DNA of 64,000 nucleotides from Dehalococcoidia bacterium (lineage in GTDB: Bacteria > Chloroflexota > Dehalococcoidia > Bin125). Made by a program: the position numbers and the translations under genes. Position 1 is the first letter of the stretch; each line of letters begins with the position of its first letter. Under the pieces are notes generated by a model that was not told where the DNA came from, ran no database searches, and saw only the letters and a list, made by a program, of their open reading frames with translations. The stretch covers positions 2,889,691 through 2,953,690 of the forward strand of contig OZ241982.1 in NCBI GenBank assembly GCA_965204335.1, written 5' to 3'. Positions 38,204-60,054 of this stretch are shown here, piece by piece.

Positions 38204-38247
38204 TCTCCCCCCGCTTCGCGGGGGGAGATGCCGCAGGCAGAGGGGGG
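38204..38247. repeat. GC-rich REP-like hairpin element (tctccccccgc-ttcg-gcggggggaga + tgccgcaggca + gagggggg)
   Basis: Perfect 11-bp inverted repeat with a TTCG loop, followed by a second short palindrome. The same unit recurs at 39079, 42813 (inverted) and 44811. Confidence 0.7.
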
Positions 38248-38278
38248 TCCCGCTCTGGCCTCAACAGTGCAGCGGGCC

Positions 38279-38983
38279 CTAAGACTCCGAAGTCAGCAAG
38301 ATTCTCGCATCCACCGCGATTGCGCCGTCGGGACGAGCAAAGACCGGATTGAGGTCCAGCTCCGCGATCTCCGGGTTCGCTTCGGCGAACTCGGAGAGTT
38401 GCAGCAGCATCGACTCGATCGCCTCAAGGTTGGCCGCCGGCTGACCGCGGAACCCTTCGAGCAGCGGGAAGCCCTGGATCTCGCGGATCATCTCTGACGC
38501 GTCGCGCGGCTCCAGCGGGACGATGCGGAACGCGACGTCCTTGAGCACCTCGACGAACACGCCGCCCAGACCGAACATCAGCACCGGACCAAACTGCTGA
38601 TCCTGGGTGATGCCAAGAATCACTTCCGCGCCCGCTTCGGCCATCGGCTGCACCGAGACGCCCTGGGCCTGGGCGTCGGGCACGGCGGCGATCACCCGCT
38701 CGTGGATCCGCTGACAGGCCGCGCGCAGCGCGTCCTCGTCGGCGACGCCCAGTTCGACCCCGCCGACATCGGTCTTGTGCGTGATCTTGTCGGAGACGAC
38801 TTTGAGCGCGACCGGGTAGCCGAGTTCGGCCGCGTGAGCGGCGGCCTCGTCAATCGACGTGGCCAGGCGGGTCTCGGTCACATTAATCCCGGCCTCGGCG
38901 AGCATCTGCTTGGCTTCGACCTCGGACAGGATGGTCCGGTTCGCAGCGCGCGCGGCGGCAATGACGTCAGCAGTCATGGGCAT
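38279..38983 (-). CDS. acetyl-CoA synthetase (ADP-forming) beta subunit, ATP-grasp domain
   Basis: ...EAKQMLAEAGINV...GYPVALKVVSDKITHKTDVGGV... ATP-grasp pattern. Immediately downstream of the alpha subunit. Confidence 0.7.
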   Translation of the reverse strand: MPMTADVIAAARAANRTILSEVEAKQMLAEAGINVTETRLATSIDEAAAHAAELGYPVALKVVSDKITHKTDVGGVELGVADEDALRAACQRIHERVIAAVPDAQAQGVSVQPMAEAGAEVILGITQDQQFGPVLMFGLGGVFVEVLKDVAFRIVPLEPRDASEMIREIQGFPLLEGFRGQPAANLEAIESMLLQLSEFAEANPEIAELDLNPVFARPDGAIAVDARILLTSES

Positions 38984-39032
38984 CTCCGTCAGAATGGGAG
39001 CAATATCTGGCCGCAGAATACACGCCGATCCC

Positions 39033-39127
39033 CCTCTCCCCCGCTCCGCGGAGGACGATGTCCCGTTCCCTCATCTTCTCTCCCCCCGCTCCGCGGGGGG
39101 AGATGTCCCGTAGGGACAGAGGGGGGC
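39033..39127. repeat. two tandem copies (one degenerate) of the REP-like hairpin element
   Basis: ctctcccccgctccgcggagga... is degenerate. tctccccccgctccgcggggggagatgtcccgtagggacagagggggg is intact, with GTCCC-GTA-GGGAC as the second hairpin. Confidence 0.65.
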
Positions 39128-39208
39128 TCCGTATCTCGCCTGCACCGGCTATTCTGTATACTCAGTTTCGCAGTTCGGAATCACTGACGAACCGCAGAGG
39201 AGTAGGCC

Positions 39209-39427
39209 ATGGCCGAGGGTGACCCGTTCGAGGACTGGCTGGACATCGTCGAGGCGGCGAGAGAACTCAACATCCACCCGCAATCCATGCGCCGCCTGAT
39301 CAAGCAGGGCCGCGTTCCCGCCCGGCTCTATGGAGGCAAGTACCTCATCGAGCGAGACCAGCTCCTGATGTTCAAGTCCAACTACGACCCCCGCCCAGGT
39401 CGGAAGCGGTCGCCGCGGCTGCTCTGA
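39209..39427 (+). CDS. excisionase-family helix-turn-helix DNA-binding protein
   Basis: 72 aa. The LDIVEAARELNIHPQSMRRLIKQGRVPARLYGGKYLIERDQL HTH_17/Xis-type motif. Confidence 0.55.
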   Translation: MAEGDPFEDWLDIVEAARELNIHPQSMRRLIKQGRVPARLYGGKYLIERDQLLMFKSNYDPRPGRKRSPRLL

Positions 39428-39941
39428 CACATTCGTCGCCAACCCAAGCATCTCTTGCCTCGCCCAACTGGGTGACGACACCGAGCGTGTCCCAGATGCA
39501 TCCGCTCGCGCAATCGAAACGGTTCCAATGAAACGCTTGGTTGTTATGCCTGTGAGAGAACTCAGCTTGATAAGGCGCGAAAAGCACGCCTCGGTACTCG
39601 ATCTTGACTCGTTGCCAATCAATGTGGAGGCCAAATCCGCCGTTGCAGGCCCGATGTACTGGCTCCCTGAATCTTCGTACGAAGTCTCGTATCTCTGCTT
39701 GGTTTGTCACTGCTAGGACATACTGAAGCTCAATCTCAACTGGCGACGCGTATCGCCACTGCTCCTGCACATCACTCCACTCTGGATCTCCGGAGGCAAG
39801 TCGATTCTTGACGAACTCCAACCAGCCGCAATCGGACTCATCGCCGAGCCAGAGTCCCGCAGGCTTATGTTCGTTGTCCCGTGATCGGGGAAACCGGGAG
39901 ATTTCCACTAGCGGTTCTGCAGAAAAGTGGTACAGTCGCAC
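39372..39941 (-). CDS. hypothetical protein in AT-richer islet
   Basis: 189 aa ORF. Composition is clearly AT-richer than the window average. The N-terminus is MRLYHFSAEPLVEI. No assignable domain. Confidence 0.4.
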   Translation of the reverse strand: MRLYHFSAEPLVEISRFPRSRDNEHKPAGLWLGDESDCGWLEFVKNRLASGDPEWSDVQEQWRYASPVEIELQYVLAVTNQAEIRDFVRRFREPVHRACNGGFGLHIDWQRVKIEYRGVLFAPYQAEFSHRHNNQAFHWNRFDCASGCIWDTLGVVTQLGEARDAWVGDECVRAAAATASDLGGGRSWT

Positions 39942-40017
39942 TCTCTCCGCTTGACCTTCCTAGCCAAGTGATCGACGTACTCGTAATGCGCCACCCGAGT
40001 CATCTCGCGACCTGCCT

Positions 40018-40122
40018 CTAGATCATAGCTCGTTTGTCCGCAATCGGGCCCAGTGCGCCCCTGAAGATCCTGTCCACCACATGCGGCTCGGCCAACGTCT
40101 TGACGTCGCTGACGCTGTTAGC
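40018..40122 (-). pseudogene. diverged fragment of an acs 3' end (last ~30 codons) with no upstream gene body
   Basis: The minus-strand translation ...[19 protein letters not shown]... aligns to the C-terminus of the intact acs at 40767 (...[18 protein letters not shown]). About 71% nt identity over 48 nt. Stop codons lie immediately upstream. Confidence 0.5.
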
Positions 40123-40600
40123 CGAACGCTACTAGCAACCCCACCGCGAGCGTCGTGGCCGCAAACCCGAGACCGACCGCACCGAGAACCCATTGACGCA
40201 TCTTCGAGTCTCGATCCTCTTGATCCCGTACGCGTTGCCTCTCGCGCTCATCTCGTTCGCGCTCGCGCTCGTCTCTCTGGCGCTCGCGCTCGTCCCGCCC
40301 GCGTTCGCGTTGATTGTTCTCTTCACGAAACTCATTGATCTCTTTGCGGATTCCATTCATCTCCGACCGGATATCAGCCATGAATTGCGCCTGCTGCGCT
40401 GCGATTTCGGCCCGTTCCGCTCGCCACTGATCGAGCAGAGATTCAAGCGCCGACTCCGTTACGAACGGAGACAGCGCTTGATCGAAGAGGTCGTCGAGCA
40501 ACGTTGCCATCGGCTCAGCCTGGCCATTCTGGCAGACGCCGGTGTCGACGAGCCGATCACGAGTCTCTAGGACGTCGATCGATGACATATCGCTCTTCAA
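40118..40600 (-). CDS. coiled-coil protein with (ER/DER) repeat and C-terminal TM anchor
   Basis: 160 aa. ERERQRDERERERDERERQR repeat, then WVLGAVGLGFAATTLAVGLLVAFG. Same architecture as the DUF1640-like paralogs. Confidence 0.45.
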   Translation of the reverse strand: MKSDMSSIDVLETRDRLVDTGVCQNGQAEPMATLLDDLFDQALSPFVTESALESLLDQWRAERAEIAAQQAQFMADIRSEMNGIRKEINEFREENNQRERGRDERERQRDERERERDERERQRVRDQEDRDSKMRQWVLGAVGLGFAATTLAVGLLVAFG

Positions 40601-40748
40601 TCTGCGGACGCAGGATGTCGGCGAGCAGGTGTGACTTCTCCTCCGTCACGTACCCGTCTGCTACCACTTTCTTCCGGATGTCCTCAAGGATTTCCTCAAG
40701 CTTCCACGCCGGAATGGGCTTGGTCTGAGCCTTGTGGACCTTTGCCAT
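40557..40748 (-). CDS. small hypothetical protein (63 aa) immediately downstream of acs
   Basis: ORF only. Overlaps the next ORF by 44 nt. No motif recognised. Confidence 0.3.
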   Translation of the reverse strand: MAKVHKAQTKPIPAWKLEEILEDIRKKVVADGYVTEEKSHLLADILRPQIEERYVIDRRPRDS

Positions 40749-40766
40749 ACGACCGATTCTACCCTT

Positions 40767-42749
40767 CTAGTGCGCCGACGACGCTCCCTCGATGATTTCC
40801 TCGACCACGTGCGGCTCCGCGAGCGTTGTCACGTCGCCGACGTTTTCCGGCTCGCCTTCCGCGACCTTCCGCAGGATTCGGCGCATGATCTTGCCTGAGC
40901 GGGTCTTGGGCAGGCCGCCGACAAATTGAATCCTGTCCGGCGTCGCGATCGGACTGATCTCCGACCGCACCTGGCGCTTCAACTCGACCGCGAGGTCGGG
41001 GCCAGGGTCGAAGCCGTCCTTGAGCAGCACGTAGGCGTAGATGCCCTCGCCCTTGATCTCGTGCGGGTAACCGACGACCGCGGCCTCGGCGCAGCCCGCG
41101 TGACCGACCAGTGCGCCCTCGATCTCCGCCGTGCCCAGGCGGTGACCCGACACGTTGAGCACGTCGTCGACGCGCCCCGTCAGCCAGTAGTAGCCGTCGT
41201 GGTCTCGGAACGAGCCGTCGCCGGTGAAGTACTTGCCCGGGTACTGGATGAAGTAGGTGTTGATGAAGCGCTCGTGGTCGCCGTAGACGGTCCGCATCAT
41301 CCCGGGCCAGCTCCGAGCCAGGCAGAGCAGGCCGCTCTGAGGGTTGCCCTCAAGCTCGTTGCCGTCGGGGTCAACCAGCACCGGCTCGATCCCGAAGAAG
41401 GGCAGCGAGGCCGAACCCGGCTTCATGTCGTTGGCGCCGGCCAGACCGGTCAGCACGTGTCCGCCGGTCTCGGTCTGCCAGTAGGTGTCGACGATCGAGC
41501 AGCGCCCCTCGCCGACGACATCGAAGTACCAGCGCCAGGCCTCGGGATTGATCGGCTCACCGACCGTGCCCAGCACCCGCAGACTCGTCCGCTGGTGGAC
41601 CTTGACCCACTCGTCGCCCTCGCGCATCAGTGCGCGAATCGCGGTCGGCGCGGTGTAGAGGATGTTGATCCCCAGCCGGTCGATCATGTCCCAGTAGCGT
41701 CCGGCGTCGGGATAGGTCGGGATCGACTCGAACATGACGGATGTCGCGCCGTTGCCCAGCGGCCCGTAGACGATGTAGCTGTGACCGGTAATCCAACCCA
41801 CGTCGGCGGCGCAGCAGTAGATGTCGCCCTCGCGGTAGTCGAAGGTGTAGCGGTGGCTGAGCATCGTGAACAGCAGGTAGCCGGCCTGCGTGTGCAGCAC
41901 GCCCTTGGGCTTCCCCGTCGAGCCTGACGTGTAGAGGATGAACAGCGGGTCCTCGGCGTCCATCACCTCCGGTTCGCATTCGTCCGACTGGTTGGCGACG
42001 GTCTCATGCCACCAGACATCGCGGCCGTCCTGCATCGTTACGTCGCCGCCCGTGTGCTGATGCACGAGCACAAACTCGACGCAGTCGACGCCGGCCGCGT
42101 CGAGCTGGTCCATCGCCGCGTCGACGTTGGCCTTGAGCGGCACGGTGCGGCCGCCGCGCTTGCCTTCGTCCTGCGTGATCACCGCCTTGCACAGCGAATC
42201 CTCGACCCGATCGGCGATCGCCGAGGCGGAGAATCCGCCGAAGATCACCGAGTGGATCGCGCCAATGCGGGCGCAGGCCAGCATCGCCGCCACGACCTCG
42301 GGCGTCATGCCCATGTAGATCGCGACGCGGTCGCCCTTGCCCACGCCGCGGCTGCGCAGTTCGTTCGCCAGCCGGCAGACCTCGGCGTGCAGTTCGCGGT
42401 AGGAGATCGACTCGTTGTCGGCCGGCTCGTCGCCTTCCCAGAGGATCGCCGTCTGGTCGCCGCGCGCCTCGAGGTGCCGGTCGAGGCAGTTGACCGAGAC
42501 GTTCAGCTTCGCGCCCAGGAACCAGGCGATCTCGCCCGAGGCCAGGTTCTCTTCCTTGAGCGTGTGCCAGGGCTCGATCAGGTCGAGGTGCGCATTGGCC
42601 ATCTCGGTCCAGAACGCGTCCGGCTCATCCAGCGAACGCCGCCAGAGCGCCTCGTAGCCCTCGCGCGACGTGACCAACGCGCCCTCGCGCACATTCTCAG
42701 GCGGCGAATACGTCTCGTTGACCGGCATGGCGGCATCGGCGGTTGTCAT
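40767..42749 (-). CDS. acs: acetyl-coenzyme A synthetase (AMP-forming)
   Basis: 660 aa. Acs N-terminus ...[18 protein letters not shown]..., the AMP-binding motif [12 protein letters not shown], and the C-terminal ...[10 protein letters not shown] signature. Confidence 0.9.
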
Positions 42750-42812
42750 GTCAGCATCCTCATCTGCTTCGGCACATGGCTGGTACCGCAGATGCTACCG
42801 CGCTGGCCCGTG

Positions 42813-42855
42813 CCCCCTCTGCCTGCGGCATCTCCCCCCGCTTCGCGGGGGGAGA
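42813..42855. repeat. REP-like hairpin element in inverted orientation
   Basis: ccccctctgcctgcggcatctccccccgcttcgcggggggaga is the reverse complement of the 38204 element. Confidence 0.7.
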
Positions 42856-42949
42856 AGGGAAACCGACGCCGCCGCGAGGGCGCGTTTCGCAGTGATACGC
42901 TGCCGATATCGAAACAGCCGCGAAAGTGCCGATCCGAAAGGTCCCACGA

Positions 42950-43293
42950 TGGCGCAGCAGGAACCGTTTCAGCGTATTTCGGTGGAGGAAGCCGAGGAGA
43001 AACGACAGGCCGGCGTGGCGCTCGTCGACACGCGGGAACTGGACGAATACCAGGACGGACACGCCGCCGGCGCTCCGCTGATGCCGCACATGTCGGTCAT
43101 GACCCGGGCCGACGAACTGGAACAGATCTCGGGCGGCAAGGATCAACCGATCATGTTCATCTGCGCGAAGGGCCAGCGCTCCGCCGTGGCCTGCGAGTTC
43201 GCCGCGGCGCTCGGCTTCACCGACCTCTACAACGTCGAGGGCGGCACCGACGCCTGGATCGCCGCCGGACTGCCGATTGAGCATCCCGGCTAG
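42950..43293 (+). CDS. single-domain rhodanese-like protein
   Basis: 114 aa from ATG 42950. ...ALVDTRELDEYQDGHAAGA... and the FICAKGQRS active-site Cys loop. Confidence 0.7.
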
Positions 43294-43332
43294 CGTGCGC
43301 GCCGCCGACGCCGCGACGGGCGGTCACATCCG

Positions 43333-43908
43333 ATGCTGAGCAGCCTGAGCGGGACCCAGCGCTATGCGCTGTTCGTCCTCGTCGTCGTCGTGGTGGTCGT
43401 CATCTATCTCGTGGTCTCGGGTGGACTCGATGAACTGACCGGCGGCGGAGACGACGACGAACAACCGGCGTCGGCGGAAACGATTGCGTCGCCGGCGCTG
43501 CGTACGGTCGCCATCGAGTTCGGCCATCCGAAGCTGGTCGGTCCGATCGAGGTCTCAATCATCGGGATCACGTTCCCGGACCAGATCCGCGCCGAAGGAC
43601 TCTGGCGTGACCCGGCGCAGCGCTTTGCCGCCGTGCAACTGACGATGACCAATCGCTCGAACCACGCGGTCGAGTTGCCCCTGGACGGTCTGCAGCTGGT
43701 GACGGTCGACGGCCGCGCCTACCTCGCCGACGCGCCGCTCTCGCTCGGCGCCGCCCGAACCGCGGACGGCGTCGTCTACGCGCCCCCGCTGGTCCTGCAA
43801 CCGCAACTGACCGTGAACGTCGTCGCCGTCTACGACATCCCGATCGACGCCAGCGGCCTGCAACTCCGAGTCCTCGGCGGCTGGTCCGACTTCGAGCTGT
43901 TTGAGTAA
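43333..43908 (+). CDS. membrane-anchored DUF4352-like protein
   Basis: N-terminal TM (LFVLVVVVVVVIYLVV), then a beta-rich domain whose pattern (…AAVQLTMTNRSNHAVELPLDGLQLVTVDGRAYLAD…) matches DUF4352. Confidence 0.45.
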   Translation: MLSSLSGTQRYALFVLVVVVVVVIYLVVSGGLDELTGGGDDDEQPASAETIASPALRTVAIEFGHPKLVGPIEVSIIGITFPDQIRAEGLWRDPAQRFAAVQLTMTNRSNHAVELPLDGLQLVTVDGRAYLADAPLSLGAARTADGVVYAPPLVLQPQLTVNVVAVYDIPIDASGLQLRVLGGWSDFELFE

Positions 43909-43920
43909 TGAGTAGAGCGC

Positions 43921-44094
43921 ACCCTCTCCCTCGACGAAAGGGGAGCCCATATGCCCCCTCCCTCTGGGAGAGGGCAGCCGGGCAACTCCCTCTCCCTCTG
44001 GGAGAGGGCCGGGGTGAGGGCTCCGGCGGCCGAGGGCCCTCACTCCCCGCCTCACGCGGGGGCAGGCTCTAACCCTCTCCCTCAGGGAGAGGGG
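43921..44094. repeat. tandem cluster of 4-5 short hairpins (CCCTCTCCC-N3-GGGAGAGGG type) in a 210-bp intergenic gap
   Basis: Two perfect 9-bp-stem hairpins (43989-44009 and 44072-44092), two degenerate copies, and CCCCGC-CTCA-GCGGGG. Confidence 0.65.
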
Positions 44095-44119
44095 ATCCGC
44101 GGAAGACAGACAGTGGAGG

Positions 44120-44788
44120 ATGCCGGCCATGACCATCCTGATGTTCGACATCGACGGCACGCTGTCGACCTCCCAGGGTGCGGGAACGCTGGCGATGACT
44201 CGCACCTTCCGCCAGCTCTGGGGCATCGAGAATGCGCTCGAGGGGATGAACTTCGCCGGTCGCAGCGATAGCTGGATCGTGCCCACAGCGCTCTCCAACC
44301 AGGGTCGCGACTGTTCGGCGGACGACCTGGCCCGCTTCGTCGATCACTACGTGCCGCACCTCGGCGACGCGCTGGAGGAACGAAACTCCCGGCTCTGCCC
44401 GGGTGTGCTGCCGCTCCTCGAAGCGCTGTCGAACGAGAACGTGACCCTCGGTCTGGGCACGGGCAACTTCCGCAGAGCGGCCGAGGCCAAGCTTGCGCCC
44501 TTCGGCATCTGGGAGTACTTCGTCGACGGCGGCTTCGGCGACGATCATCCCGACCGCACACGGTTGCTCGCCGCCGGCCTGGAGCGGCTCCGCCGCCACT
44601 CCACCGACGGCGCCGACGCGGTCGTGATCGGAGATACGGGCCACGACGTCGAGGCGGGCCACGCCATCGGCGCGAAGGTCGTCGCCGTCAAGACCGGCTA
44701 CGCCCAGCCCGGCGAACTCAATGAGGCGGACGTGATTCTGGACGATCTCTCGGACCTGGAAACGTCCCTGCTCGCCTTGTTGGACTGA
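44120..44788 (+). CDS. HAD-superfamily hydrolase
   Basis: ILMFDIDGTL motif I, a later ...GLGTGN..., and the GDTGHDVEAG motif IV. Confidence 0.75.
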   Translation: MPAMTILMFDIDGTLSTSQGAGTLAMTRTFRQLWGIENALEGMNFAGRSDSWIVPTALSNQGRDCSADDLARFVDHYVPHLGDALEERNSRLCPGVLPLLEALSNENVTLGLGTGNFRRAAEAKLAPFGIWEYFVDGGFGDDHPDRTRLLAAGLERLRRHSTDGADAVVIGDTGHDVEAGHAIGAKVVAVKTGYAQPGELNEADVILDDLSDLETSLLALLD

Positions 44789-44810
44789 GAAATCCGGCGA
44801 TCAACGGCTT

Positions 44811-44882
44811 CCCCTCTCCCTCCGCTTCGCGGGGGGAGATGCCGCAGCCTGTCCCGGGCTCCGACCCGGGGGCAGAGGGGGG
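44811..44882. repeat. expanded REP-like element
   Basis: cccctctccctccgcttcgcggggggagatgccgcagcc, then CCCGGG-CTCCGA-CCCGGG, then cagagggggg. Confidence 0.6.
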
Positions 44883-44906
44883 CTGCGCCTGCGGTAACCT
44901 GACCGC

Positions 44907-45575
44907 ATGTCTACCGGACTGATCGTCGGCATCATCATCATCCTGCTCGTCGTCGGCGTGCCGATCCTGCAGGCGTTGATTCGCGCCGTGCAGCGGCGTC
45001 GATCGCTGGGCGGCGACGGCGTACCCGCGCTGCGGGCGGCCGGCCTGCGCGGCGACGAGCTTCCGCGCGGCCTGGCCCGCCAGACGGCGGAGGCGGTGAC
45101 TTCCGAGGAGATCGCGCTTGAGGCCGACAATCCCGAGGCGACGATCACTCAGTTGGACGCCGCCGGCCGCATCATCGGCTATCGCGAGAGCTTTCGAGAG
45201 CCGCGCTCGATGGGCGAATTCATGGACTGGCTGCTGGCCCAGTCGATCTATCGCAACCGGGCCCATCGCCGGGTCGAGGTGGAACTGACCCGATACGAGT
45301 CGGCGGAGCAGGCGTCGGATGCGCTCAACATGGATCCGATGCTGGATGTCGGCGACGACACGGTGCAGGTCGAGGACGCCGGCGAGCGGGGCGGCATCCT
45401 CGCTCGCGAATGGACCAGGACGGAGAACGGCTCGACGGTCCAGCGGATGCTGGAGCTGCGCTGGACCTCGGGCGACGTGCTGGGAGTGCTGCGCGGCGAC
45501 TCGGAGCCGTCGGGCGCGCTGGACGATGCGGAGGTCGAGCGGCTGGCCGCGCTGGTCAAGGAGCGGTTGTCATGA
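44907..45575 (+). CDS. membrane-anchored hypothetical protein
   Basis: N-terminal TM LIVGIIIILLVVGVPIL. 222 aa. First gene of a 5-gene same-strand run with overlapping stops and starts. Confidence 0.45.
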   Translation: MSTGLIVGIIIILLVVGVPILQALIRAVQRRRSLGGDGVPALRAAGLRGDELPRGLARQTAEAVTSEEIALEADNPEATITQLDAAGRIIGYRESFREPRSMGEFMDWLLAQSIYRNRAHRRVEVELTRYESAEQASDALNMDPMLDVGDDTVQVEDAGERGGILAREWTRTENGSTVQRMLELRWTSGDVLGVLRGDSEPSGALDDAEVERLAALVKERLS

Positions 45576-45692
45576 TTTCTGGAATCTTCGGAGCAATCCT
45601 GGGGTTGCTGGGGAATATCTTCGGCCCGGAGGGCCGCGAACGCCGACGCCGGCGTCGGCGGCGCTTGCGCCGACGCGGAATGGACGGCGGCG

Positions 45693-46166
45693 GTGGCGGC
45701 TGAAGAACGCGCGGCCCTGCTCGCGCGCTACCGCGCAGCCCCGAAGCTGCTGACCGAGGCGGTCGCCGGATCGTCGATCGCGCAGCTCGACGGCCTGCCG
45801 CCTGAGCCCGGCTGGACCGCTCGCGAGAACGTGCATCACGTCTCCGACATCGCCGTGATGGGCGCCCTGAGGCTGCGGCTGATGCTGCTCGACATCGAGG
45901 TCGAGATGTGGCCGACCGATCAGGACACGATGCAGAAACGGCTGCGCAACGACAGGCGGCCAATCGGTCCGGCGCTCAAGACCGTCGAAGGGCTCGTCGA
46001 GTCGGCCGTCTCGATCCTCGGTACGTTGCGCGAGGATGAATGGACGCAGCCCCGCCCGGTGCCGGTGGCGCGATCGGCCAGCATCGAGGACTGGCTGGCC
46101 GCCAACACGCGCCACATCGAGCAGCACATCGACCAGATCCGATACGCCCTGACCGGCACCTGCTAG
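45693..46166 (+). CDS. DinB_2/YfiT-like family protein (1 of 3 tandem paralogs)
   Basis: 4-helix-bundle-sized ORF with a conserved His triad (…NVHHVSD…, …TRHIEQHIDQI…). Confidence 0.6.
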   Translation: MAAEERAALLARYRAAPKLLTEAVAGSSIAQLDGLPPEPGWTARENVHHVSDIAVMGALRLRLMLLDIEVEMWPTDQDTMQKRLRNDRRPIGPALKTVEGLVESAVSILGTLREDEWTQPRPVPVARSASIEDWLAANTRHIEQHIDQIRYALTGTC

Positions 46167-46176
46167 GGCGCGGCCC

Positions 46177-46644
46177 ATGACTGAACGTCCGGCGTTGCTG
46201 GCGGAGTACCTCGAGGCGACCAACGAGATCGAGGTCGTGCTGGAGGAACTATCCGAGTCCGAGCTGGAGGCGCGAGAGAACCCGCACGAGTGGTCGATCC
46301 GCCAGATCGTCCACCACCTGGCCGACGTCGAGGTTGGCGACGCCATGCGTCTGCGACTGATGATCGCCCATGACGGACCACTGATCACCGCGTACGACGA
46401 GAGCCTCTTCGCCGAGCGGCTCCACTATGAGCGGCCGATTGAGGTGTCGCTGACCCTGTTCTCGCAGTTGCGAGCGTCCAACGTCGAGCTGGTCGAGCGT
46501 CTGACGGAGGCCGAGTGGTCGAGGCACGGCTGGCATGAGGAGCACGAGCGCTACTCGATCGAGATACTGGTCGACCGCAGCATCGCCCACGACCGCGCGC
46601 ACCTCGCGCAGATCCGGCGCGCGCTCCAGGCGGAGAGGAATTGA
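46177..46644 (+). CDS. DinB_2/YfiT-like family protein (2 of 3)
   Basis: …IRQIVHHLADVE…DRSIAHDRAHLAQI… matches the DinB-family His pattern. Confidence 0.6.
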   Translation: MTERPALLAEYLEATNEIEVVLEELSESELEARENPHEWSIRQIVHHLADVEVGDAMRLRLMIAHDGPLITAYDESLFAERLHYERPIEVSLTLFSQLRASNVELVERLTEAEWSRHGWHEEHERYSIEILVDRSIAHDRAHLAQIRRALQAERN

Positions 46645-47231: not shown

Positions 47232-47240
47232 CATCCCCAC

Positions 47241-51383: not shown

Positions 51384-51433
51384 GGCCGCTCCGACCTCAG
51401 CTTAGGGAGACATGCAGCAACACGATCCGAAGT

Positions 51434-51563
51434 CGGCCCCGCGCAGGCGGGGCCCCATCGCGCCAGCGGATCGCGACGCCTCCGCGTGCGCGGGGGCGAC
51501 GCCTACGGCCTGACGCGGGAAGCCCCCTCAGTCGCTTCGAGACAGCTCCCCCAGAGGGGGAGC
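51434..51563. repeat. three GC hairpins including GGCCCCGC-GCAG-GCGGGGCC
   Basis: Perfect 8-bp stems at 51434-51453 and 51545-51563 (GCTCCCCC-AGA-GGGGGAGC). The first is the reverse-orientation twin of the hairpin at 60035. Confidence 0.6.
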
Positions 51564-51572
51564 TCGTTGCTT

Positions 51573-52709: not shown

Positions 52710-53040
52710 ACGCGACCTTTCCGTGAGTCGTCGGTGTGAGCGGGGTTTGGACGTATGGTACCAGCGCCTCGTGGGACGACTTCGGCCCTGCCTATAGTGG
52801 ATTCATGGAAGCCAGAGCAACGGCCACGGCCTGGTTCAAGATCGAGCAGAAGACGATCTACGCGGTCGCGCTGATCGCGGTGTGCCTGTTGCTGGCGTCG
52901 GTGGCCCTCGCCTGGTCGGCGGCGAGATCTCGAGGGCAAGAGAGGGAATCGGCGGACGAGCGCGACGTGACCGAAGTTGATAGGGCGCGGATACCTGACT
53001 AATCTTGGGATGAACGAGCACGGGGAGGGGAAGGTGCGAG

Positions 53041-53292
53041 ATGTCAGGACCCTGGCAAGCGGAACAGGTGGGCGGACACTTCAGCGAGATGTTGGCCGCA
53101 AGCCTGACAGACGAACCGCAGATCGTCACTTGCGACGGCGCGGAGACAGCAGTGTTGGTCTCGATTGAGACCTGGCGCGACATGCGCAAGCGCATGAATC
53201 TCTCATTGAAGGAGTGGCTCCTCGCCCCTGAAGCTCGCGGCGAGATCCCGATTCCGGATCGGTCAGACTGGGGTTCCCGTCTGAGCGATTGA
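53041..53292 (+). CDS. Phd/YefM-type antitoxin
   Basis: 83 aa. …FSEMLAASLTDEPQIVTCDGAETAVLVSIETWRDM… is typical of Phd_YefM. GAGGGGAAGG RBS. Stop 2 nt before the vapC start. Confidence 0.6.
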   Translation: MSGPWQAEQVGGHFSEMLAASLTDEPQIVTCDGAETAVLVSIETWRDMRKRMNLSLKEWLLAPEARGEIPIPDRSDWGSRLSD

Positions 53293-53294
53293 GC

Positions 53295-53702
53295 ATGTAC
53301 TTACTGGACACCAACGTGGTTTCGGAGTTGCGCAAACCACGACCTGCTCCGGTCGTGCTCGATTGGCTGAACGCCAATGAGGACGCGGGCCTCTACATCA
53401 GCGCCGTGATGGTCGGGGAGATTCAGGCCGGCATCGAGCGTGCACGTCGACAGGATCCGATCAGAGCCGCCGAACTGGAGAGATGGTTGAACCTGGACAT
53501 CCTGGCCGGCTTCGAGGTTGTGGACATGGATGCGAGAGCGTTCCGCCAATGGGCGCGCGTCATGCAGGGACGGTCCATCACCTTGATGCTCGACGTGATG
53601 ATCGCAGCCATCGCTAGTGTGAACCAACTCGTCGTAGTCACCCGAAACGTAAGAGACTTTGATCAACTCGGTGTGACGGTGATGAACCCGTTTGAGGATT
53701 AG
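53295..53702 (+). CDS. vapC: VapC PIN-domain ribonuclease toxin
   Basis: MYLLDTNVVSELRK start and conserved acidic residues of the PIN domain (D6, E, D, …TRNVRDF). Confidence 0.8.
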   Translation: MYLLDTNVVSELRKPRPAPVVLDWLNANEDAGLYISAVMVGEIQAGIERARRQDPIRAAELERWLNLDILAGFEVVDMDARAFRQWARVMQGRSITLMLDVMIAAIASVNQLVVVTRNVRDFDQLGVTVMNPFED

Positions 53703-53721
53703 ACCCTGTTGCGTGGCCCGT

Positions 53722-54945
53722 CTAGGTTCCGGCCGGGCCGACGATGGTGATTTCTTCGCCCAGGGCGGCCAGGCCCAGCGAGTGCTGGAGCTCGTCGGTC
53801 TTCCAGGCCATGACGATGCCTCCGGTGAGATCCCGGTAGAGGCGCTCCAGCGGATGGCCCTTGACGTACGCGTGGGCGCCGGTCGTCTTGATGCTGATCT
53901 GGGCGACCTCTTCGGCCATTCGTCGCAGGTGGTGGGTGGTGCGGACCTGCATACGGATGAAGGACTGTCGGTCGCTGTAGGCGCGGTCGACCTCTTCGAC
54001 GGCGTGGTAGAGCATCGTCCGGCCGGAGGCGAGCCAGCTATCCATCTCACCGAGCGCCATCTGCGCCCAGGCCTGCTGCGATCGCAATTCGTTTGTGCCG
54101 CCGAGCGGGCTGTTGGCCGAAGCGAGGTAGCCGCGACGGTGCTGCAGGTACTCGACGGTCTCGTCGAACATCGCCTGGGCGTTGCCCAGCCAGATCGCGC
54201 AGATCCCGAGTCCGGGCAGGGCCCGCCGCTGCCATTGCAGCTGGGGGATCATCTGCTCGCCCATGCGCAGCAGCGCCAGCGGCACGACGAAGCAGTCGGC
54301 GCGCGGGAGACGGAGAGCTTCGATCACGACGTCATGCGATGCAGTCGAGCGCAGGCCCATGCCGTCCCAGTTGGCTCGGTTGACAATCGAGTCCTGGTCG
54401 AACTCCGGCAGTGCGATCACGAGGTCGGGTTCGGCGGCTCGCTCGATCAGGGCGCCCACCATCGCGAACCGGGCCGCATCGGCGCCCGACGCGAATCCGG
54501 CGCGTCCCGAAATCACCAGGTCGGTGCCCTCCTCGACCGCCATGAAGCCGGTCGAGGTGTTGTCCAGCTCACGAGAGGGAATGCTGCCCGGTGCACAGCA
54601 CCAGGCGCCCTCGGCGCAGGCCTTGAGCATCGTGTCTCGATGCGGAAAGGGCGGCAGAGCCGTGGCGATGCCGGTCACGAGCAAGTGCATGTTGAGCGCC
54701 ACCGCCGTCGACGCATCGCCCCAGGCGATCTCTTCGATCAGCCGGATGAAGGTCTCGCCGTCCGCATCCAACCCGCCGAACGCCTCCGGGATCAGCAGGC
54801 CGGGGATACCGAGTTCAGCGAGTTCGTTGAAGTTGTCGATCGGCAGTTGACCATCGCGATCGGCGTCGGCCGCCCGCTCGCGAAACGGTCCGCGGGCCAG
54901 CTCGCGGACCTGCTCGATCAACTGTCCTGAGGCGTCGGCGTCCAT
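53722..54945 (-). CDS. acyl-CoA dehydrogenase family protein
   Basis: Start at ATG 54945 (MDADASGQLIEQVRELARGPF), with a GGGAG RBS. The N-terminal extension of the annotated ORF is rejected. ACAD N/middle/C domains are present. Confidence 0.7.
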   Translation of the reverse strand: MDADASGQLIEQVRELARGPFRERAADADRDGQLPIDNFNELAELGIPGLLIPEAFGGLDADGETFIRLIEEIAWGDASTAVALNMHLLVTGIATALPPFPHRDTMLKACAEGAWCCAPGSIPSRELDNTSTGFMAVEEGTDLVISGRAGFASGADAARFAMVGALIERAAEPDLVIALPEFDQDSIVNRANWDGMGLRSTASHDVVIEALRLPRADCFVVPLALLRMGEQMIPQLQWQRRALPGLGICAIWLGNAQAMFDETVEYLQHRRGYLASANSPLGGTNELRSQQAWAQMALGEMDSWLASGRTMLYHAVEEVDRAYSDRQSFIRMQVRTTHHLRRMAEEVAQISIKTTGAHAYVKGHPLERLYRDLTGGIVMAWKTDELQHSLGLAALGEEITIVGPAGT

Positions 54946-55068
54946 GTGGGCTCCCGTGGTTGATATGAATGAGAACGAAGTCAGCGTATCGGGCTGTTGG
55001 CTCGGAGCGTTAGCATTTCGGCAGGATGCGGAATCCTCTGGAAAGGGCTTCGGGAAAGGACCGGGCTG

Positions 55069-56022
55069 ATGCCGTCGATCAACACGTTGCATGGAGAAGT
55101 GGATACGTCGGAACTGGGCCGCACGCTGATCCATGAGCACATCGGAATCCGCTCGCCCGGCATCTCGGAAAACTGGCCGGAACTGTGGGACGAGGCGGGC
55201 TGCGTGGCGTCGGCCGATGAGAAGCTGAACGCGCTTCAGCAGCGCGGCGTTAGCACGGTGGTTGACCTCTCGACCGCCGACCTCGGCCGCGACATGGGCT
55301 TCCTGCAGAAGGTGTCTCACGTGACCTCAATCAACGTCGTGCTCTGCACCGGGATCTACTGGCTGCGCTCGATGTACTGGCGCGGCCGGCCGGCCGAGAT
55401 GATGACCGAGGTGTTCGTCAGGGACATCACCGAAGGGATTGCGGGAACGGGCGTCAAGGCCAACATCATCAAGCTCGCCTCGGACGAGCAGGGCGGCGGC
55501 GTCGACAGCTACAACGAGAAGTGTCTGCGCGCCGGCGCACGCGCGCATCGAGCGACCGGCGTGCCGATCGCAACGCACAACGGACCCCCGGAGCTGGGCG
55601 CGCTCCAGCAAGACGTCTTTGAGGACGAAGGCTGCGACCTCTCGCGCATCGTGATCGGCCACGTTGGCGACACGGCCGACACCGACTACCTCAAGTCGCT
55701 CATGGATCGCGGCTCGTATGTCGGCCTTGACCGGTTCGGTCTCGACCAGATCCTGCCGTTCGACGACCGCGTCAACACGGTCGTCAAGCTGGCGAGCGAC
55801 GGGTACACCGAGCGCATGTTGCTGGCCCACGACGCGTCCTGCTGCCTCGACTGGATTCCCGACATCGACGCCATGCGGCAGGCCCAGCCCAACTGGCACT
55901 TCAACCACATCTCCGATGATGTCGTGCCCGCCCTGCTGGAGCGCGGCGTGACGCAGGCGCAGGTCGACCAGATGCTGATCGGCAACCCGCGCGAGCTGTT
56001 CGAGAAGCAGGGCGCGTACTAG
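55069..56022 (+). CDS. phosphotriesterase-family (PTE/Php-like) amidohydrolase
   Basis: MPSINTLHGEVDTSELGRTLIHEHI… is the PTE family start, including the first metal-binding HxH. Confidence 0.75.
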   Translation: MPSINTLHGEVDTSELGRTLIHEHIGIRSPGISENWPELWDEAGCVASADEKLNALQQRGVSTVVDLSTADLGRDMGFLQKVSHVTSINVVLCTGIYWLRSMYWRGRPAEMMTEVFVRDITEGIAGTGVKANIIKLASDEQGGGVDSYNEKCLRAGARAHRATGVPIATHNGPPELGALQQDVFEDEGCDLSRIVIGHVGDTADTDYLKSLMDRGSYVGLDRFGLDQILPFDDRVNTVVKLASDGYTERMLLAHDASCCLDWIPDIDAMRQAQPNWHFNHISDDVVPALLERGVTQAQVDQMLIGNPRELFEKQGAY

Positions 56023-57672
56023 GTGGCCGCCGCCGATTTGGAGCCGGCGGACGTCCTGGCGGCCGCGCGCGCCGGGTTCGCCGGAGCGTCGATCGAGGAG
56101 GCAGCGGGGGACGTGGCCGCCCGGGCTCGCCTGTGGCGGGCGGGCGTTGTCGTCGCGGAAGCAGAAGCGACGGCGGACGATGGACTGAATGCGGCCCTGG
56201 CGGCAGGGAGCGGGCTGCGGCCGGCGATGGGAGCAGGCTCCGACCAGCCGGGCGACGCATTGAGTGTCGAAGTTGAGGCGGAACGCATGCCGCGTCAGCC
56301 CGAAGGCCTGATCGGCCTGATCCAGACGCCGCTGCCGGGCAGACACGGCCTGCTGCTTCGAGACGGGGACAGCACGGCGCGCGGCTGGCCGTTCGACGCG
56401 TTGCGGACCGACGGTCGAACCGCTGCCTGGGTCAAGCGGCTCAACCGGGAAGTGCGGCGGCCGGGCGCGAGACTGGCCTCAAGCACCTCGGTCGAGGTCT
56501 TTACGAGCGTCGAAGCCCTGGGGACGGTGGCGCCGTCGGACGGCGAGCGCATCTCGCCCCGCTCCGGCGGCTTCCGGCTCGTCGAGATGGACGAAGTCCT
56601 GCCCGATCGGCTCACGGGTTCGGCGTTGCAAGCGGCGGCCTGGTTGCTTCGTCACCAGCGGCCGGACGGATCGTTCGCATACGAGTACGCGCCGCCGACC
56701 TCCGACCAGGCAGGCGGCTGGACGCCGTACGACCAGCTCGTGCGGCAATGCGGCTGCGCCTGGGCGATCGCGATGGTCGCTCGCATCTCACGCGACCGCA
56801 AGATCGGCGAGGCGGCGGCGCAGGCGATCAGTGGCATCCTGGAGCGGCACCTCAAACGCGACGGCCCGGGTCGATTGTTCTACCTCGAGGACATGTACGG
56901 GGAGCCCAAGCTGGGCGCCCCGCCGCTGCTGCTGCTCGCGATCTGCGAAATGGGCGGCTCCCTGCGAATCGCGCGCGAAACGGTTGACCAGCTCACCGCC
57001 TCGCTGCTGGCGGTGCAATCGCGGGACGGCCGGCTGGGCACCAGGGCGCGCGGGATGGAGTTGGAAGGTTCAGAGACCTACTACGTCGGACAGGTCGTTC
57101 TGGCGCTGGCCAGGATGTACGCGATTCGCAAGCGCCCGCGACTGCGCTCGGCCGTGGAGCGGTCGCTCAAGCACTACCGGGAGCGCTGGCAGAACGAGGA
57201 TGAACGCGATCTGTCCTTCACGACCTGGATGATCCAGGCCTGCGATCAATGGCACGCGAACGTCGCAGACGACCTGTCCAGGGACTACGCCTACGAAATG
57301 GCGGACTGGGCGCTCGAGGAACAGCACGGCGACGACTGCGAGAACCCACTCTGGGCGGGGGCGTTCCAGAACACACCGGGGATCGGCACCGCCGCCTACA
57401 GCGAGGGCATCGCCAGCGCCCTCTCGATTGCGCAGCGGGCGGAGGACGATGAACGGGCTGAACGCTACAGGTCGGCACTGCTGCTGAGCATGCGGTTCCT
57501 GCTGTCGCTCTCGCTCGACGGTCCCGAGCATGCCCTGGTCGGCGGCCCCGAACACGTCGGAGCGGTGCGCTCGGCCCTTCACCGCCCCGGCCTCCGCTGC
57601 GACAACGCCCAGCACTACCTGATGTCGATGCTCCGGGCGCGCGCTCTATGCTGGGATTCGAACGGAGAGTGA
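56023..57672 (+). CDS. alpha/alpha-toroid (prenyltransferase/squalene-cyclase-like repeat) protein of unknown function
   Basis: Repeated QxxDGxF/W-like segments (HQRPDGSFAY, QSRDGRLG). Ala-rich N-terminal region. Start is uncertain (GTG directly after the PTE stop, or an internal Met). Confidence 0.4.
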   Translation: MAAADLEPADVLAAARAGFAGASIEEAAGDVAARARLWRAGVVVAEAEATADDGLNAALAAGSGLRPAMGAGSDQPGDALSVEVEAERMPRQPEGLIGLIQTPLPGRHGLLLRDGDSTARGWPFDALRTDGRTAAWVKRLNREVRRPGARLASSTSVEVFTSVEALGTVAPSDGERISPRSGGFRLVEMDEVLPDRLTGSALQAAAWLLRHQRPDGSFAYEYAPPTSDQAGGWTPYDQLVRQCGCAWAIAMVARISRDRKIGEAAAQAISGILERHLKRDGPGRLFYLEDMYGEPKLGAPPLLLLAICEMGGSLRIARETVDQLTASLLAVQSRDGRLGTRARGMELEGSETYYVGQVVLALARMYAIRKRPRLRSAVERSLKHYRERWQNEDERDLSFTTWMIQACDQWHANVADDLSRDYAYEMADWALEEQHGDDCENPLWAGAFQNTPGIGTAAYSEGIASALSIAQRAEDDERAERYRSALLLSMRFLLSLSLDGPEHALVGGPEHVGAVRSALHRPGLRCDNAQHYLMSMLRARALCWDSNGE

Positions 57673-57679
57673 CGGCCTG

Positions 57680-57958
57680 ATGGCGATCATCGACACCCTC
57701 AGGTTCCGCAACATTCTGGTCGACGGCGAGATCGCTGAAGAGGAGCCGGCCCGAGAGTTCGTCGGGGCGCTTGATGAGTCTCTCGAAGAGATCACGGGCA
57801 ACCTAGCAACGAAGGCCGATCTGACAGCATTCAAGGCGGAGATTCTGGCTGCTATCGCTCAAAGCGATGCTGCCAACGCCTGCGGCCGATTGGCGCTGTT
57901 TGTCGCCATCACTGCGGTCCTCGCCGTTGCAGTGGGGCTGATTCTCGGTCTCAACTGA
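57680..57958 (+). CDS. DUF1640-like coiled-coil protein with C-terminal TM anchor (paralog 3 of 3)
   Basis: MAIIDTLRFRNILV…NLATKADL…LFVAITAVLAVAVGLILGLN. Confidence 0.5.
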   Translation: MAIIDTLRFRNILVDGEIAEEEPAREFVGALDESLEEITGNLATKADLTAFKAEILAAIAQSDAANACGRLALFVAITAVLAVAVGLILGLN

Positions 57959-57960
57959 CC

Positions 57961-58860
57961 TCAGCCCTTGAGCTCGGGCCAGACCTCGCGCCAGGCGGTT
58001 TCGATCGTTTGCAGGTATTGGTCGACGGGGATGGCAAGTTCCCGGTCGTAGTTGGGCATTCCGATGCCGAGGCGGGTGATGCCCATGTCCCGGGCGGCGC
58101 TCAACAGGCGCCGGGTGTTGGACATATCGGCGTCGAGCGGCGGCAGCCACTGGATGGGGAAGTCGTCAGGGTCGCGGTCGTTGGCTTCGAGCTGCGTGCG
58201 CAGGCGGCCGATCAGCTCGGCCAGTTGATCCACAGTGGACTGAACGGGCGCGATCCAGCCGTCGCCCAGGCGGGCCGTGCGCTCGATCGCTGCCTGAGCA
58301 AAGCCGCCGAAGAGGATCGGCGGGCCGCCCGGCGTGACCGGCTTGGGCATCACCGACATCTGGTCGATGTTGACGTAGCGGCCGCTGAACGTGATCGGTT
58401 CCTCCGTCCAGCAGGCGCGCAGGACGCGGATGTACTCCTCCATCCGGCTGGGCCGCTGGCGGAAGTTGGCCGTCAACGCGTCGAACTCCTGCCACTGCCA
58501 GCCGATCCCGATCCCGAGACGCATCCGCCCGCCCGAGAGGATGTCGATCTCGGCCGCCTGCTTGGCGACCAGCACCGGCTCTCGTTGCGGCAGGACCAGC
58601 ACGTTGGTCTGCAGTGCGACACGGTTGGTGATTCCGGCCAACCAGGCGAGCGTCGTCAGCACCTCGTGCTGGTGAACGTCGTCGGTGTAGGGGCCGGTCT
58701 GCGGACGGTCGTCGCGCGCGTAGGCGTAGATGACGTGATCCGCCATCGAGATGAAGTCGCAGCCGATCGCCTCGACGCCCTGAGCCCAGTCGCGCAGCTC
58801 GGAGACGTCCCAGTGCCAGTGCCAAGCGGGAATCTGACAGCCGAACTCAAACTGTGCCAT
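57961..58860 (-). CDS. LLM-class F420-dependent oxidoreductase (luciferase-like monooxygenase fold)
   Basis: 299 aa. Conserved segments …AEIDILSGGRMRLGIGIGW… and …LLSAARDMGITRL…. Confidence 0.75.
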   Translation of the reverse strand: MAQFEFGCQIPAWHWHWDVSELRDWAQGVEAIGCDFISMADHVIYAYARDDRPQTGPYTDDVHQHEVLTTLAWLAGITNRVALQTNVLVLPQREPVLVAKQAAEIDILSGGRMRLGIGIGWQWQEFDALTANFRQRPSRMEEYIRVLRACWTEEPITFSGRYVNIDQMSVMPKPVTPGGPPILFGGFAQAAIERTARLGDGWIAPVQSTVDQLAELIGRLRTQLEANDRDPDDFPIQWLPPLDADMSNTRRLLSAARDMGITRLGIGMPNYDRELAIPVDQYLQTIETAWREVWPELKG

Positions 58861-59295
58861 GGGACATCTCCGTTCATCGCGCGCGTGCGGTCAGGTGTAT
58901 CCTAAGCGCATCCCGATAGCAGCTGGATGACCTGAGAGGTGTGGCGTTGGATGAACGGCATGCAGGCGAAGAGGGTGTCCTACGGAGCGACATCGCCGAC
59001 GTGATCGACCGCGCGGCGGCGATGGCGGTCTATGCATTTGCGTCGGTCAACCAGGCCGGCGCGACGGAGGGTTTGAAACTGCCTCCGCAACTGGCGGAAC
59101 ATCTGGCCGAGGCGACGTACGTCGACGTCATGCGTTACTCGCTGGAGGAATGCACCTGTCCCTGCCACCAGGAGCACTAGCAGGAGCAACAGCAAGCGCA
59201 CCAGTCCTCAGACGGCGCCCGCGAGGCAGGGCTACACTGCGCTTGACTGCGCAAATGCAGACGGTCTTTCACGTGACGATACGAAGGAGCTCTCG

Positions 59296-59931
59296 ATGAC
59301 GACGGCAACCAAGGAATCCGTGGTGACGCCGGAGCGGTTCAAGTCGGGCATGACCTGGAACCAGTATCTGGCCTTCATCAATTCGGAAGAGAATTTCGAG
59401 CGCCTGACCCCGGGCGGCCAGCCGCGCGGCGACGCGAACGTCGAGCGCTTCATCCGCAACATGAGCGCCTGGCAGGTCTCGGAGGCGGGCCGCGAGGCGC
59501 TGCAGGCGCTGCCGCGGCTGAAGATGCTGGTCCTGGGCGAAGACTGGTGCCCGGACGTCTACCGCGGACTGCCGGTGCTGGCCGAAATCGCCGCGACCGC
59601 GGGCTGGGAGATTCGCATCTTTGCCCGTGACGAGAACAACGACATCATGTCCGAGTTCCTCAAGGACGGACAGCACGAGTCAATCCCGACGGCGGTGATC
59701 TACACGCTCGACCACGAGTACATCGGTCACTGGATCGAGCGCCCGGCAGTGGCGAACGAGCACATGGCCAACATGCAAAAGCTGTTCAGCCGCAAAGAGG
59801 GCGAGTCCGAGGACGACATGCGCGCCCGCATCCGCCAGGGTTACCGAGACCTCCAGTCGTCCGACGAGTGGGCCTCCTGGCGCGACGAGACGGTCAACGA
59901 GATCGTCGAACTGGTTCGCAGCAACACGTAG
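59296..59931 (+). CDS. thioredoxin-fold protein with single-Cys WCPD motif
   Basis: AAGGAG RBS. …LVLGEDWCPDVYRGLP…, with a monothiol variant of the CxxC motif. Confidence 0.55.
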   Translation: MTTATKESVVTPERFKSGMTWNQYLAFINSEENFERLTPGGQPRGDANVERFIRNMSAWQVSEAGREALQALPRLKMLVLGEDWCPDVYRGLPVLAEIAATAGWEIRIFARDENNDIMSEFLKDGQHESIPTAVIYTLDHEYIGHWIERPAVANEHMANMQKLFSRKEGESEDDMRARIRQGYRDLQSSDEWASWRDETVNEIVELVRSNT

Positions 59932-59942
59932 GGAACTCTCAC

Positions 59943-60054
59943 CCCTGCCCGCTCCCGGGGCAGACCTGCGCGCAAGTCCAGGCTTGAGTCGCCCCCGCGT
60001 AGGCGGGGGCGCCGCTATCACGTGGTCGCTGGATGGCCCCGCCTGCGCGGGGCC
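59943..60054. repeat. three GC hairpins (CGCCCCCGC-GTAG-GCGGGGGCG; GGCCCCGC-CTGC-GCGGGGCC)
   Basis: Perfect 9-bp and 8-bp stems between convergent genes. Confidence 0.6.

Follow-up and report, generated by a model that had tools for sequence, protein, structure and literature searches.

Short hairpin repeats resembling repetitive extragenic palindromes in uncultured Dehalococcoidia

A 64,000-nt stretch of the genome of an uncultured Dehalococcoidia bacterium (GenBank assembly GCA_965204335.1, contig OZ241982.1, positions 2,889,691 to 2,953,690; hereafter the window) carries four families of short GC-rich hairpin repeats in its intergenic gaps. These families probably form a superfamily of short structured interspersed repeats similar to repetitive extragenic palindromes (REP), bacterial interspersed mosaic elements (BIME) and REP doublets forming hairpins (REPIN), proper to an uncultured Dehalococcoidia clade and spread as hairpins. 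In the broad sense of the term they are REPs, being short palindromes that occur in many copies and are extragenic. A preliminary description of the window had likened the hairpins to repetitive extragenic palindromes, and in this broad sense the comparison holds: the elements are short, structured, multi-copy, located outside genes, found in both orientations, arranged in doublets or clusters, and variably present between genomes. Elements of this kind are well known; a description of these families, of the plan in three parts, of the AGTC tag in family 2 and of the host clade seems to be missing from the searchable literature.

A unit of family 1 consists of hairpin 1 with an 11-bp stem (TCTCCCCCCGC/GCGGGGGGAGA) and a free 3-nt loop, hairpin 2 located directly 3' of hairpin 1, and the tail GAGGGGGG. 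Pattern scanning of species-representative genomes (one per species) gave at least 110 stretches, and 170 oriented units were analysed, four from the window (copies A to D, Table 1) and at least 166 from other loci. The hairpin-1 stem is identical in 125 of the 170 units. Its loop takes 36 different triplets, often in complementary pairs, and varies more than any other part of the unit. The C(UUCG)G tetraloop proposed in the preliminary description has to be abandoned, as the loop is just the three nucleotides TTC (11 + 3 + 11 = 25 nt); copy C is inverted, yet its loop on the plus strand is still TTC. Hairpin 2 varies in sequence and keeps its pairing and the C(GNA)G loop. Its main classes are TGCC/GGCA (about 100 units), TGTCAC/GTGACA (about 40) and TGTCCC/GGGACA (about 16), accompanied by expanded forms. 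Of 133 units in which hairpin 1 is perfect, 132 have GNA as the loop of hairpin 2. Since the GNA loop lies on one particular strand, the family-1 unit has a defined functional strand.

The pairing is preserved in 98.4% of cells of a 38-sequence alignment. Double-sided changes were found in two hairpin-2 pairs, C-G/U-A at 19:18 and A-U/C-G at 10:8; the MAFFT alignment gathers the length difference of 4 nt between hairpin-2 classes in one block, so that the two inner-pair counts refer to the long class only. None of 500 shuffles reached the observed covariation score, and slid registers drop to 50–67% pairing. Folded as DNA, family 1 forms exactly two adjacent hairpins with energies of −17 to −20 kcal/mol and z of −3.6 to −4.4 (unit A: −17, z −3.6; unit B: −20.1, z −4.4). 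Copy C has a short closing helix, in which the upstream C-run pairs with the tail. About 45% of family-1 units have such an upstream C-run, with which the tail could pair and close a three-way junction. The tail is also an exact mirror of the 3' arm of hairpin 1 (9/9 positions; GGGGGGAGA vs AGAGGGGGG). In a pair of orthologous stretches (L094 2971–3037 and L078 2338–2422) we found a unit without hairpin 2, the break being located exactly between the AGA/GA repeats, that is between GGGGGGAGA and GGGGGG. This difference suggests that hairpin 2 may come or go as a separate module.

The hairpins listed in the preliminary description are present in the window within 1–4 nt of the positions given there, and chance is not expected to have produced them: the 23-nt hairpin core occurs at four window sites compared to a mean of 0.01 in 100 dinucleotide-preserving shuffles, nearly all of which gave 0. 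In the output of a repeat finder, the family-1 copies of the window rank second among the direct families and make up the two top inverted pairs. In 5.7 kb of gaps there are about 12 perfect hairpins with a stem of at least 8 bp, and the 58 kb of coding sequence also contain about 12, which is roughly a tenfold gap enrichment. A covariance model (R1), built from copies in other genomes and three window copies, scored the four family-1 copies at 80, 67, 65 and 42 bits and found no copy in the first 38 kb of the window (1–38 kb). Searching the window against Rfam 15 matched no repeat family at the gathering score, the sole match being a tRNA at 24930–25003.

The preliminary description had made its repeat claim depend on copies outside the window, and these clearly exist: among the matches listed, all of the at least 166 further full units are located in 17 metagenome-assembled genomes (MAGs) of Chloroflexota/Dehalococcoidia, and none of the 11 non-Chloroflexota pattern matches (Streptomyces, Frankia and other genera) is a true unit; these are chance matches. 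The isolate names (SB0664, IRC, RHO, bin125) suggest that the host MAGs may be sponge-associated. Units occur at a density of about one per 10–16 kb of sampled DNA, which corresponds to the order of 100 or more units per 3-Mb genome. The family-1 pattern is absent from viral contigs. About 20 of 94 stretches from metagenome contigs contain true units, and no transposase was found there. Soil/rhizosphere-type contigs (L140, L178, L187) carry a family-1 variant with the otherwise unseen hairpin-2 class TGCCC-GGA-GGGCA, so that family 1 may reach beyond the MAG clade of the genome scan.

Three other families accompany family 1. Family 2 is an AGTC-tagged palindrome, (A/G)AGTC-G[GC]CCCCGC-GNAG-GCGGGG[GC]C, which recurs in loci L035, L064, L068, L088 and L108; at least 12 of about 15 units have AGTC next to the foot of the stem. 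Two tail-to-tail doublets of this family are located in the window and another was found in L068, with a spacer of about 22–24 nt. Each window doublet folds into one long hairpin (51430–51503: −32.8 kcal/mol, z −3.5; 59986–60059: −30.9 kcal/mol, z −5.3). With these included, all units fold as drawn when treated as DNA (z −3.5 to −5.3). Segments 51427–51500 and 59988–60062 are inverted copies of one composite of about 75 nt (repeat pairs I9, 96%, and I14, 84%), which is built by the GGCCCCGC-N4-GCGGGGCC hairpins together with the adjoining CGCCCCCGC-type hairpins. Hairpins of this second type had been described as reverse-orientation twins, which they are; only the position of one of them, 51434–51453, had to be shifted by one nucleotide to 51435–51454.

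The hairpin at 51545 had been regarded as a companion of the second type. Its architecture is that of family 1 and not of the GGCCCCGC type, and R1 matches 51521–51568 on the minus strand along the full model length. This element belongs to family 3, whose consensus on the C-rich strand is CCCCCT-CAGTCGC-TNC-GCGACAG-CTCCCCC-NNN-GGGGGAG, with 43 matches in 28 sources. Family 3 is a short-stem relative of family 1. Family 4 has the form CCCTCTCCC-NNN-GGGAGAGGG followed by GGGTGAGGG and was found at about 29 sites in 15 other sources. Families 1, 3 and 4 share a common plan: a hairpin of a pyrimidine arm and a purine arm, a free three-base loop and a purine tail mirroring the purine arm. The mirror is exact in family 3 (GGGGGAG vs GAGGGGG) and nearly so in family 4 (GGGAGAGGG vs GGGTGAGGG). 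The preliminary description counted at least seven gaps with repeats and listed six; a seventh does exist, at 43909–44119, and carries the related family 4.

Gene context was assessed with a crude, home-made codon-log-odds gene caller trained on the loci, whose calls match those genes of the window that have Pfam support. None of the 170 units is located inside a gene. The host gaps are co-directional in 62%, convergent in 26% and divergent in 12% of cases, compared to 61%, 16% and 23% of background gaps of at least 40 nt. Convergent gaps are therefore enriched and divergent ones depleted among host gaps, which is the location typical of REPs. In co-directional gaps 58 units are sense and 40 antisense, and the sense units lie at a median distance of 47 nt from the upstream stop codon vs 92 nt from the next start codon. 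Two of the six window gaps are divergent (copies B and C), copy D and the 51.4-kb group are located in co-directional gaps and the 60.0-kb doublet in a convergent one. Scanning of both strands of the window for T-tracts has shown that none follows any family-1 or family-2 hairpin; the sole terminator-scan flag, 51544–51564, is on the plus strand, which does not suit the orientation of the genes beside it. Lacking a T-tract, the hairpins are not canonical terminators, and the terminator-like role suggested earlier is further disfavoured by the location of two of the four family-1 window copies in divergent gaps and by the 40 antisense units.

Family-1 units occur as singletons, head-to-head doublets and tandem arrays, in both orientations. 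In related genomes many plus/minus pairs are 70–110 nt apart and tandem arrays are also present; several genomes (e.g., L036, L037, L053, L057, L061) contain composites of about 180 nt with two inverted units around a conserved spacer of about 50 nt. Locus L107 (OZ253504.1, 480001–488000) is a hot spot: within 8 kb, ten family-1 units are interspersed with small open reading frames (ORFs) for paralogous membrane proteins. Other arrays or hot spots of family-1 units or half-units are located at L023 7260–7870, L030 3350–3460 and L060 6580–6720. In loci L001–L110, the strand with the G-tail is the C-rich one according to the local 8-kb GC skew for 105 units and the G-rich one for 50; the 8-kb skew forms no clean replichore domains and this 105:50 association is not interpretable.

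Gain and loss of units were followed in the nearest relatives, L092 (RHO1_bin_20, about 80% nucleotide identity) and L100 (OZ244584.1), and in other species, with orthologous gaps defined by conserved flanking proteins (75–98% identity). In at least ten cases one species has units in an orthologous gap that is empty in another species, so presence/absence polymorphism is evident. L092 is collinear with the 38.7–47.0 kb part of the window and has both copy B with its decayed tandem neighbour B' and copy C at orthologous sites. B' is decayed there as well, and the B site contains a different hairpin-2 class, tgcc-gaa-ggca. Copy D is missing in L092, where the orthologous gap is 4 nt long, and so is the entire 211-nt cluster at 43.9 kb, the two flanking genes being 7 nt apart. 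L100 has the orthologous gap without the 60.0-kb doublet. In the 13 gaps shared between species, units are 86% identical and the remainder of the gap 47%. Shared units also stay nearer to the consensus of the family than the spacer around them does. Being better conserved than their flanks, the units are either under constraint or repeatedly re-homogenised.

How such units could have spread can be outlined as follows. That the GNA loop is strand-specific and the stems are perfect suggests that the units are recognised as single-stranded hairpins. We speculate that the units are spread and homogenised as single-stranded DNA hairpins by a hairpin-recognising enzyme, for which an HUH Y1 transposase of the RAYT or TIRYT type would be the precedent. 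The gene for this enzyme would exist as a single copy at another place in the genome, or may already be lost. Inserted units would be carried in untranslated regions and intergenic transcripts, where the very stable hairpins may protect transcript 3' ends by analogy with E. coli REPs; they would not act as U-tract terminators.

The repeats share much with REP and BIME of Proteobacteria, which are likewise short, GC-rich, extragenic palindromes with many copies in both orientations and several families per genome, occurring as singletons, inverted dimers and mosaic clusters with a bias to gene 3' ends. They differ in that family 1 combines a perfect 11-bp stem with a second hairpin and a G-run, while the REP/BIME unit is one imperfect, bulged palindrome, and in that the host is a member of Dehalococcoidia. 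The described REP superfamilies are defined by GTAG or CGTC end tags; CGTC elements have no dedicated transposase, and GTAG repeats were reported in the phylum Chloroflexi, but the families described here are not among them (Di Nocera et al. 2013, PMC3733652). In family 1, GTAG is found only in the loop of hairpin 2, as one of four variants that can replace each other.

The family-2 doublets are inverted pairs with a short spacer that form one long hairpin, as REPINs do, and the same holds for many family-1 doublets in related genomes (Bertels and Rainey, 2011, PMC3116915; Bertels et al. 2017, PMC5581495). Other features in common with the REPIN-RAYT system are near-identical populations within a genome and persistence at orthologous sites across species. 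In contrast to it, the four family-1 copies of the window occur singly, family-1 doublets combine two different hairpin-2 classes, and no RAYT was found in the 1.5 Mb searched here, whereas REPINs nearly always flank RAYT genes (Bertels et al. 2017, PMC5581495). Another relevant system is that of the terminal inverted repeats (TIRs) flanking TIRYT Y1 transposase genes, which share GGGG[AT][CG]A[CG] (PMC3733652; Quentin et al. 2018, PMC6006769). This motif fits the family-4 tail GGGGTGAG and, on the reverse strand, GGGGAGAG of the family-1 5' region, and these TIRs are also moderately repeated and occur as dimers or clusters. The match is a short low-complexity one, a lead from the literature, and no TIRYT gene was seen in the window or the 1.5 Mb. 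Rho-independent terminators resemble the units in having a strong GC-rich stem-loop that is often located downstream of genes. Unlike them, the units lack a U/T tract on both strands and also occur in divergent promoter gaps and in antisense orientation.

The mobilising enzyme was sought in the window and in 1.5 Mb of sequence surrounding about 200 copies, which amounts to about 4–6% of each genome. A tblastn search with RayT of E. coli MG1655 gave nothing in the loci or the window, a hidden Markov model built from 120 RAYTs gave nothing at E ≤10 in six-frame ORFs of the 1.5 Mb, and neither did a scan of the 1.5 Mb for HUH...YxxNP motifs. No multi-copy protein families were found near the units, and no parent insertion sequence (IS) or multi-copy transposase in the 1.5 Mb. 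The genes between inverted units have ordinary metabolic functions. As only about 4–6% of each genome was sampled and the queries were enterobacterial, the absence of RAYT is a weak negative, and a distant Y1 protein could be missed. A literature search found neither these sequences nor a link of REPIN/RAYT to Chloroflexota.

Several observations speak against mobile, REP-like repeats. No RAYT or IS200-like gene was found in the window and the 1.5 Mb, where about two RAYT-flanking copies could be expected (about 6% sampled, 17 genomes), which is weak evidence. The GTAG and CGTC end tags are absent: family 1 ends in (CCCC)T...GAGGGGGG and family 2 has AGTC. No consistent target-site duplication or insertion boundary was found in filled/empty pairs, the genomes being about 80% identical and too divergent for clean empty sites. 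The conservation of B and C between species, both being located in divergent promoter gaps, would fit a host function equally well as re-homogenisation. Finally, any role at the RNA level is purely what we infer by analogy.

These points have to be set against the other explanations. The units could be non-mobile cis-elements selected by the host, such as U-tract-independent or factor-dependent terminators, 3'-end stabilisers or sites for nucleoid or regulatory proteins, kept by purifying selection. The enrichment of convergent and depletion of divergent gaps, the closeness of sense units to the upstream stop codon (median 47 nt, with 92 nt to the next start), the retention of B and C at orthologous sites despite about 20% nucleotide divergence, the higher conservation of units than of their flanks and the very high stem energies can all be accommodated in this way. 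It nevertheless seems unlikely, as no hairpin has a T-tract and one 44-nt consensus stands beside unrelated genes; 40 of the 98 co-directional units are antisense, yet hairpin 2 is strand-specific, and the frequent filled/empty gaps, the tandem arrays and the hot spot of ten units in 8 kb look like proliferation. Proliferation of another kind would be that of miniature inverted-repeat transposable elements, i.e., deletion derivatives of a DDE-type IS in which head-to-head units serve as TIRs and the transposase, acting by cut-and-paste or copy-and-paste, is provided in trans. The two-unit composites of about 180 nt around a conserved spacer of about 50 nt in related genomes and the presence/absence polymorphism would suit such elements. 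We nevertheless consider this origin very unlikely, since no target-site duplication was recognised in filled/empty pairs, a parent IS or multi-copy transposase was not found in the 1.5 Mb, most copies, including all four family-1 copies of the window, are single units not bounded by TIRs, and doublet halves are usually of different hairpin-2 classes.

The units might also act through an unusual DNA structure, either a cruciform or an intramolecular triplex of the hairpin-1 purine arm GGGGGGAGA and the mirror tail AGAGGGGGG, and serve as topological or replication landmarks. The C(GNA)G sequence is an extra-stable DNA mini-hairpin motif, the tail mirrors the arm in families 1 and 3 and nearly so in family 4, and the strand of the unit correlates with local GC skew (105 to 50), all of which would be in favour of this idea. 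Few variant copies exist and none of those inspected has in-register covariation of arm and tail, low-complexity G-runs easily become mirror-symmetric by chance, and in about 45% of copies the tail can pair with the upstream C-run instead, so we see hardly any likelihood of such landmarks. Somewhat less improbable, although still rather doubtful, is that the units are distinct clade-wide three-part DNA elements and not RAYT-dependent REPs. They would then be substrates of an unrecognised single-strand-DNA or triplex-based system which mobilises them or organises the chromosome and homogenises copies across sponge-symbiont Chloroflexota; the strand-specific C(GNA)G mini-hairpin and the arm-mirroring purine tail would mark them as such substrates. 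REP-like repeats spread as hairpins remain the reading that we prefer.

The repeats add well-defined REP/BIME-like families for a phylum and a lifestyle, that of uncultured, apparently sponge-associated Dehalococcoidia, with hardly any such repeats described. The patterns and the covariance model can be used to mask repeats in annotation, as six-frame translation gives spurious ORFs there. The repeats can also serve as natural markers for strain typing and for tracing rearrangement; those of the window are concentrated in a variable segment of 20 kb. Discovery of the mobilising enzyme, or proof that it is lacking, would be a test of whether REPIN-RAYT-like long-term associations exist outside Proteobacteria.

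In the window, unit A is flanked by a CoA-binding gene (36770–38182) and an ATP-grasp gene (38279–38983), both on the minus strand, and is thus antisense. Unit B is located in the divergent gap between the ATP-grasp gene (minus strand) and an HTH_17 gene (39209–39427, plus strand), unit C in the divergent gap between the acetyl-CoA synthetase gene (40767–42749, minus strand) and a rhodanese gene (42949–43293, plus strand). The gap with unit D separates a HAD hydrolase gene from the next, co-directional gene; hairpin 2 of this unit is expanded to 35 nt and contains an inner cccggg hairpin. The doublet at 51430–51503 lies between two co-directional minus-strand genes, and its inverted twin in the convergent gap between Thioredoxin_9 (plus strand) and CDP-OH_P_transf (minus strand) genes.

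Table 1. Hairpin repeats located in the window (positions in window coordinates; scores are those of the R1 covariance model)
Feature	Positions	Strand	Structure	Score
Family-1 unit A	38204–38247	+	tctccccccgc-ttc-gcggggggaga, then tgcc-gca-ggca, then gagggggg	67.2 bits
Decayed tandem copy B' of family-1 unit	~39033–39070	+		weak matches at 39028–39060
Family-1 unit B	39079–39127	+	6-bp hairpin-2 class tgtccc-gta-gggaca	80.1 bits
Family-1 unit C, inverted	42813–42856	-		65.1 bits
Family-4 cluster (211 nt)	43909–44119		unit CCCTCTCCC-N3-GGGAGAGGG, then GGGGTGAGGG; also GGGCCCTCAC palindrome; weak R1 matches	
Family-1 unit D	44815–44882	+	one stem mismatch (tctccctccgc)	41.7 bits
Family-2 doublet	51430–51503	+	aagtc-GGCCCCGC-GCAG-GCGGGGCC, 22-nt spacer, inverted partly decayed unit CGCCTCCGC-GTGC-GCGGGGGCG	
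Family-3 unit	51521–51568	-	GCTCCCCC-tct-GGGGGAGC, hairpin 2 tgtctc-gaa-gcgact, GAGGGGG	33.7 bits, E 5e-7
Family-2 doublet, inverted twin of 51430–51503	59986–60059	-	units 60035–60054 and 59990–60011, AGTC-type tags outermost	
Individual hairpins of other types	51435–51454; 60035–60054; 51544–51564; 59990–60011			

Two further sites with perfect intergenic hairpins fall outside all four families. One, at 45641–45676, contains cgccgacg/cgtcggcg overlapping gcgtcggcg/cgccgacgc, and the other, at 10368–10389, is gagcgccg/cggcgctc.

Window segments 36786–37455 and 57971–63922 are neighbours in the related complete genome of L100 (OZ244584.1), one of them inverted, and family-3 copies are located at the L100 junction. 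This neighbourhood indicates that the window stretch of about 20 kb with every repeat copy is a rearranged or variable segment. Another difference concerns 39424–40118, about 700 nt of lower GC content, with ORFs lacking a Pfam match (e.g., 39372–39941, minus strand), which is missing in L092. It directly follows the HTH_17 gene 39209–39427, which is excisionase-like and present in L092, and it looks like a small inserted islet. Upstream of the repeats, a plus-strand gene coding for a protein with Schlafen AlbA_2 and HATPase_c_4 domains (35016–36758) has a codon-usage score far poorer than those of its neighbours and may be foreign.

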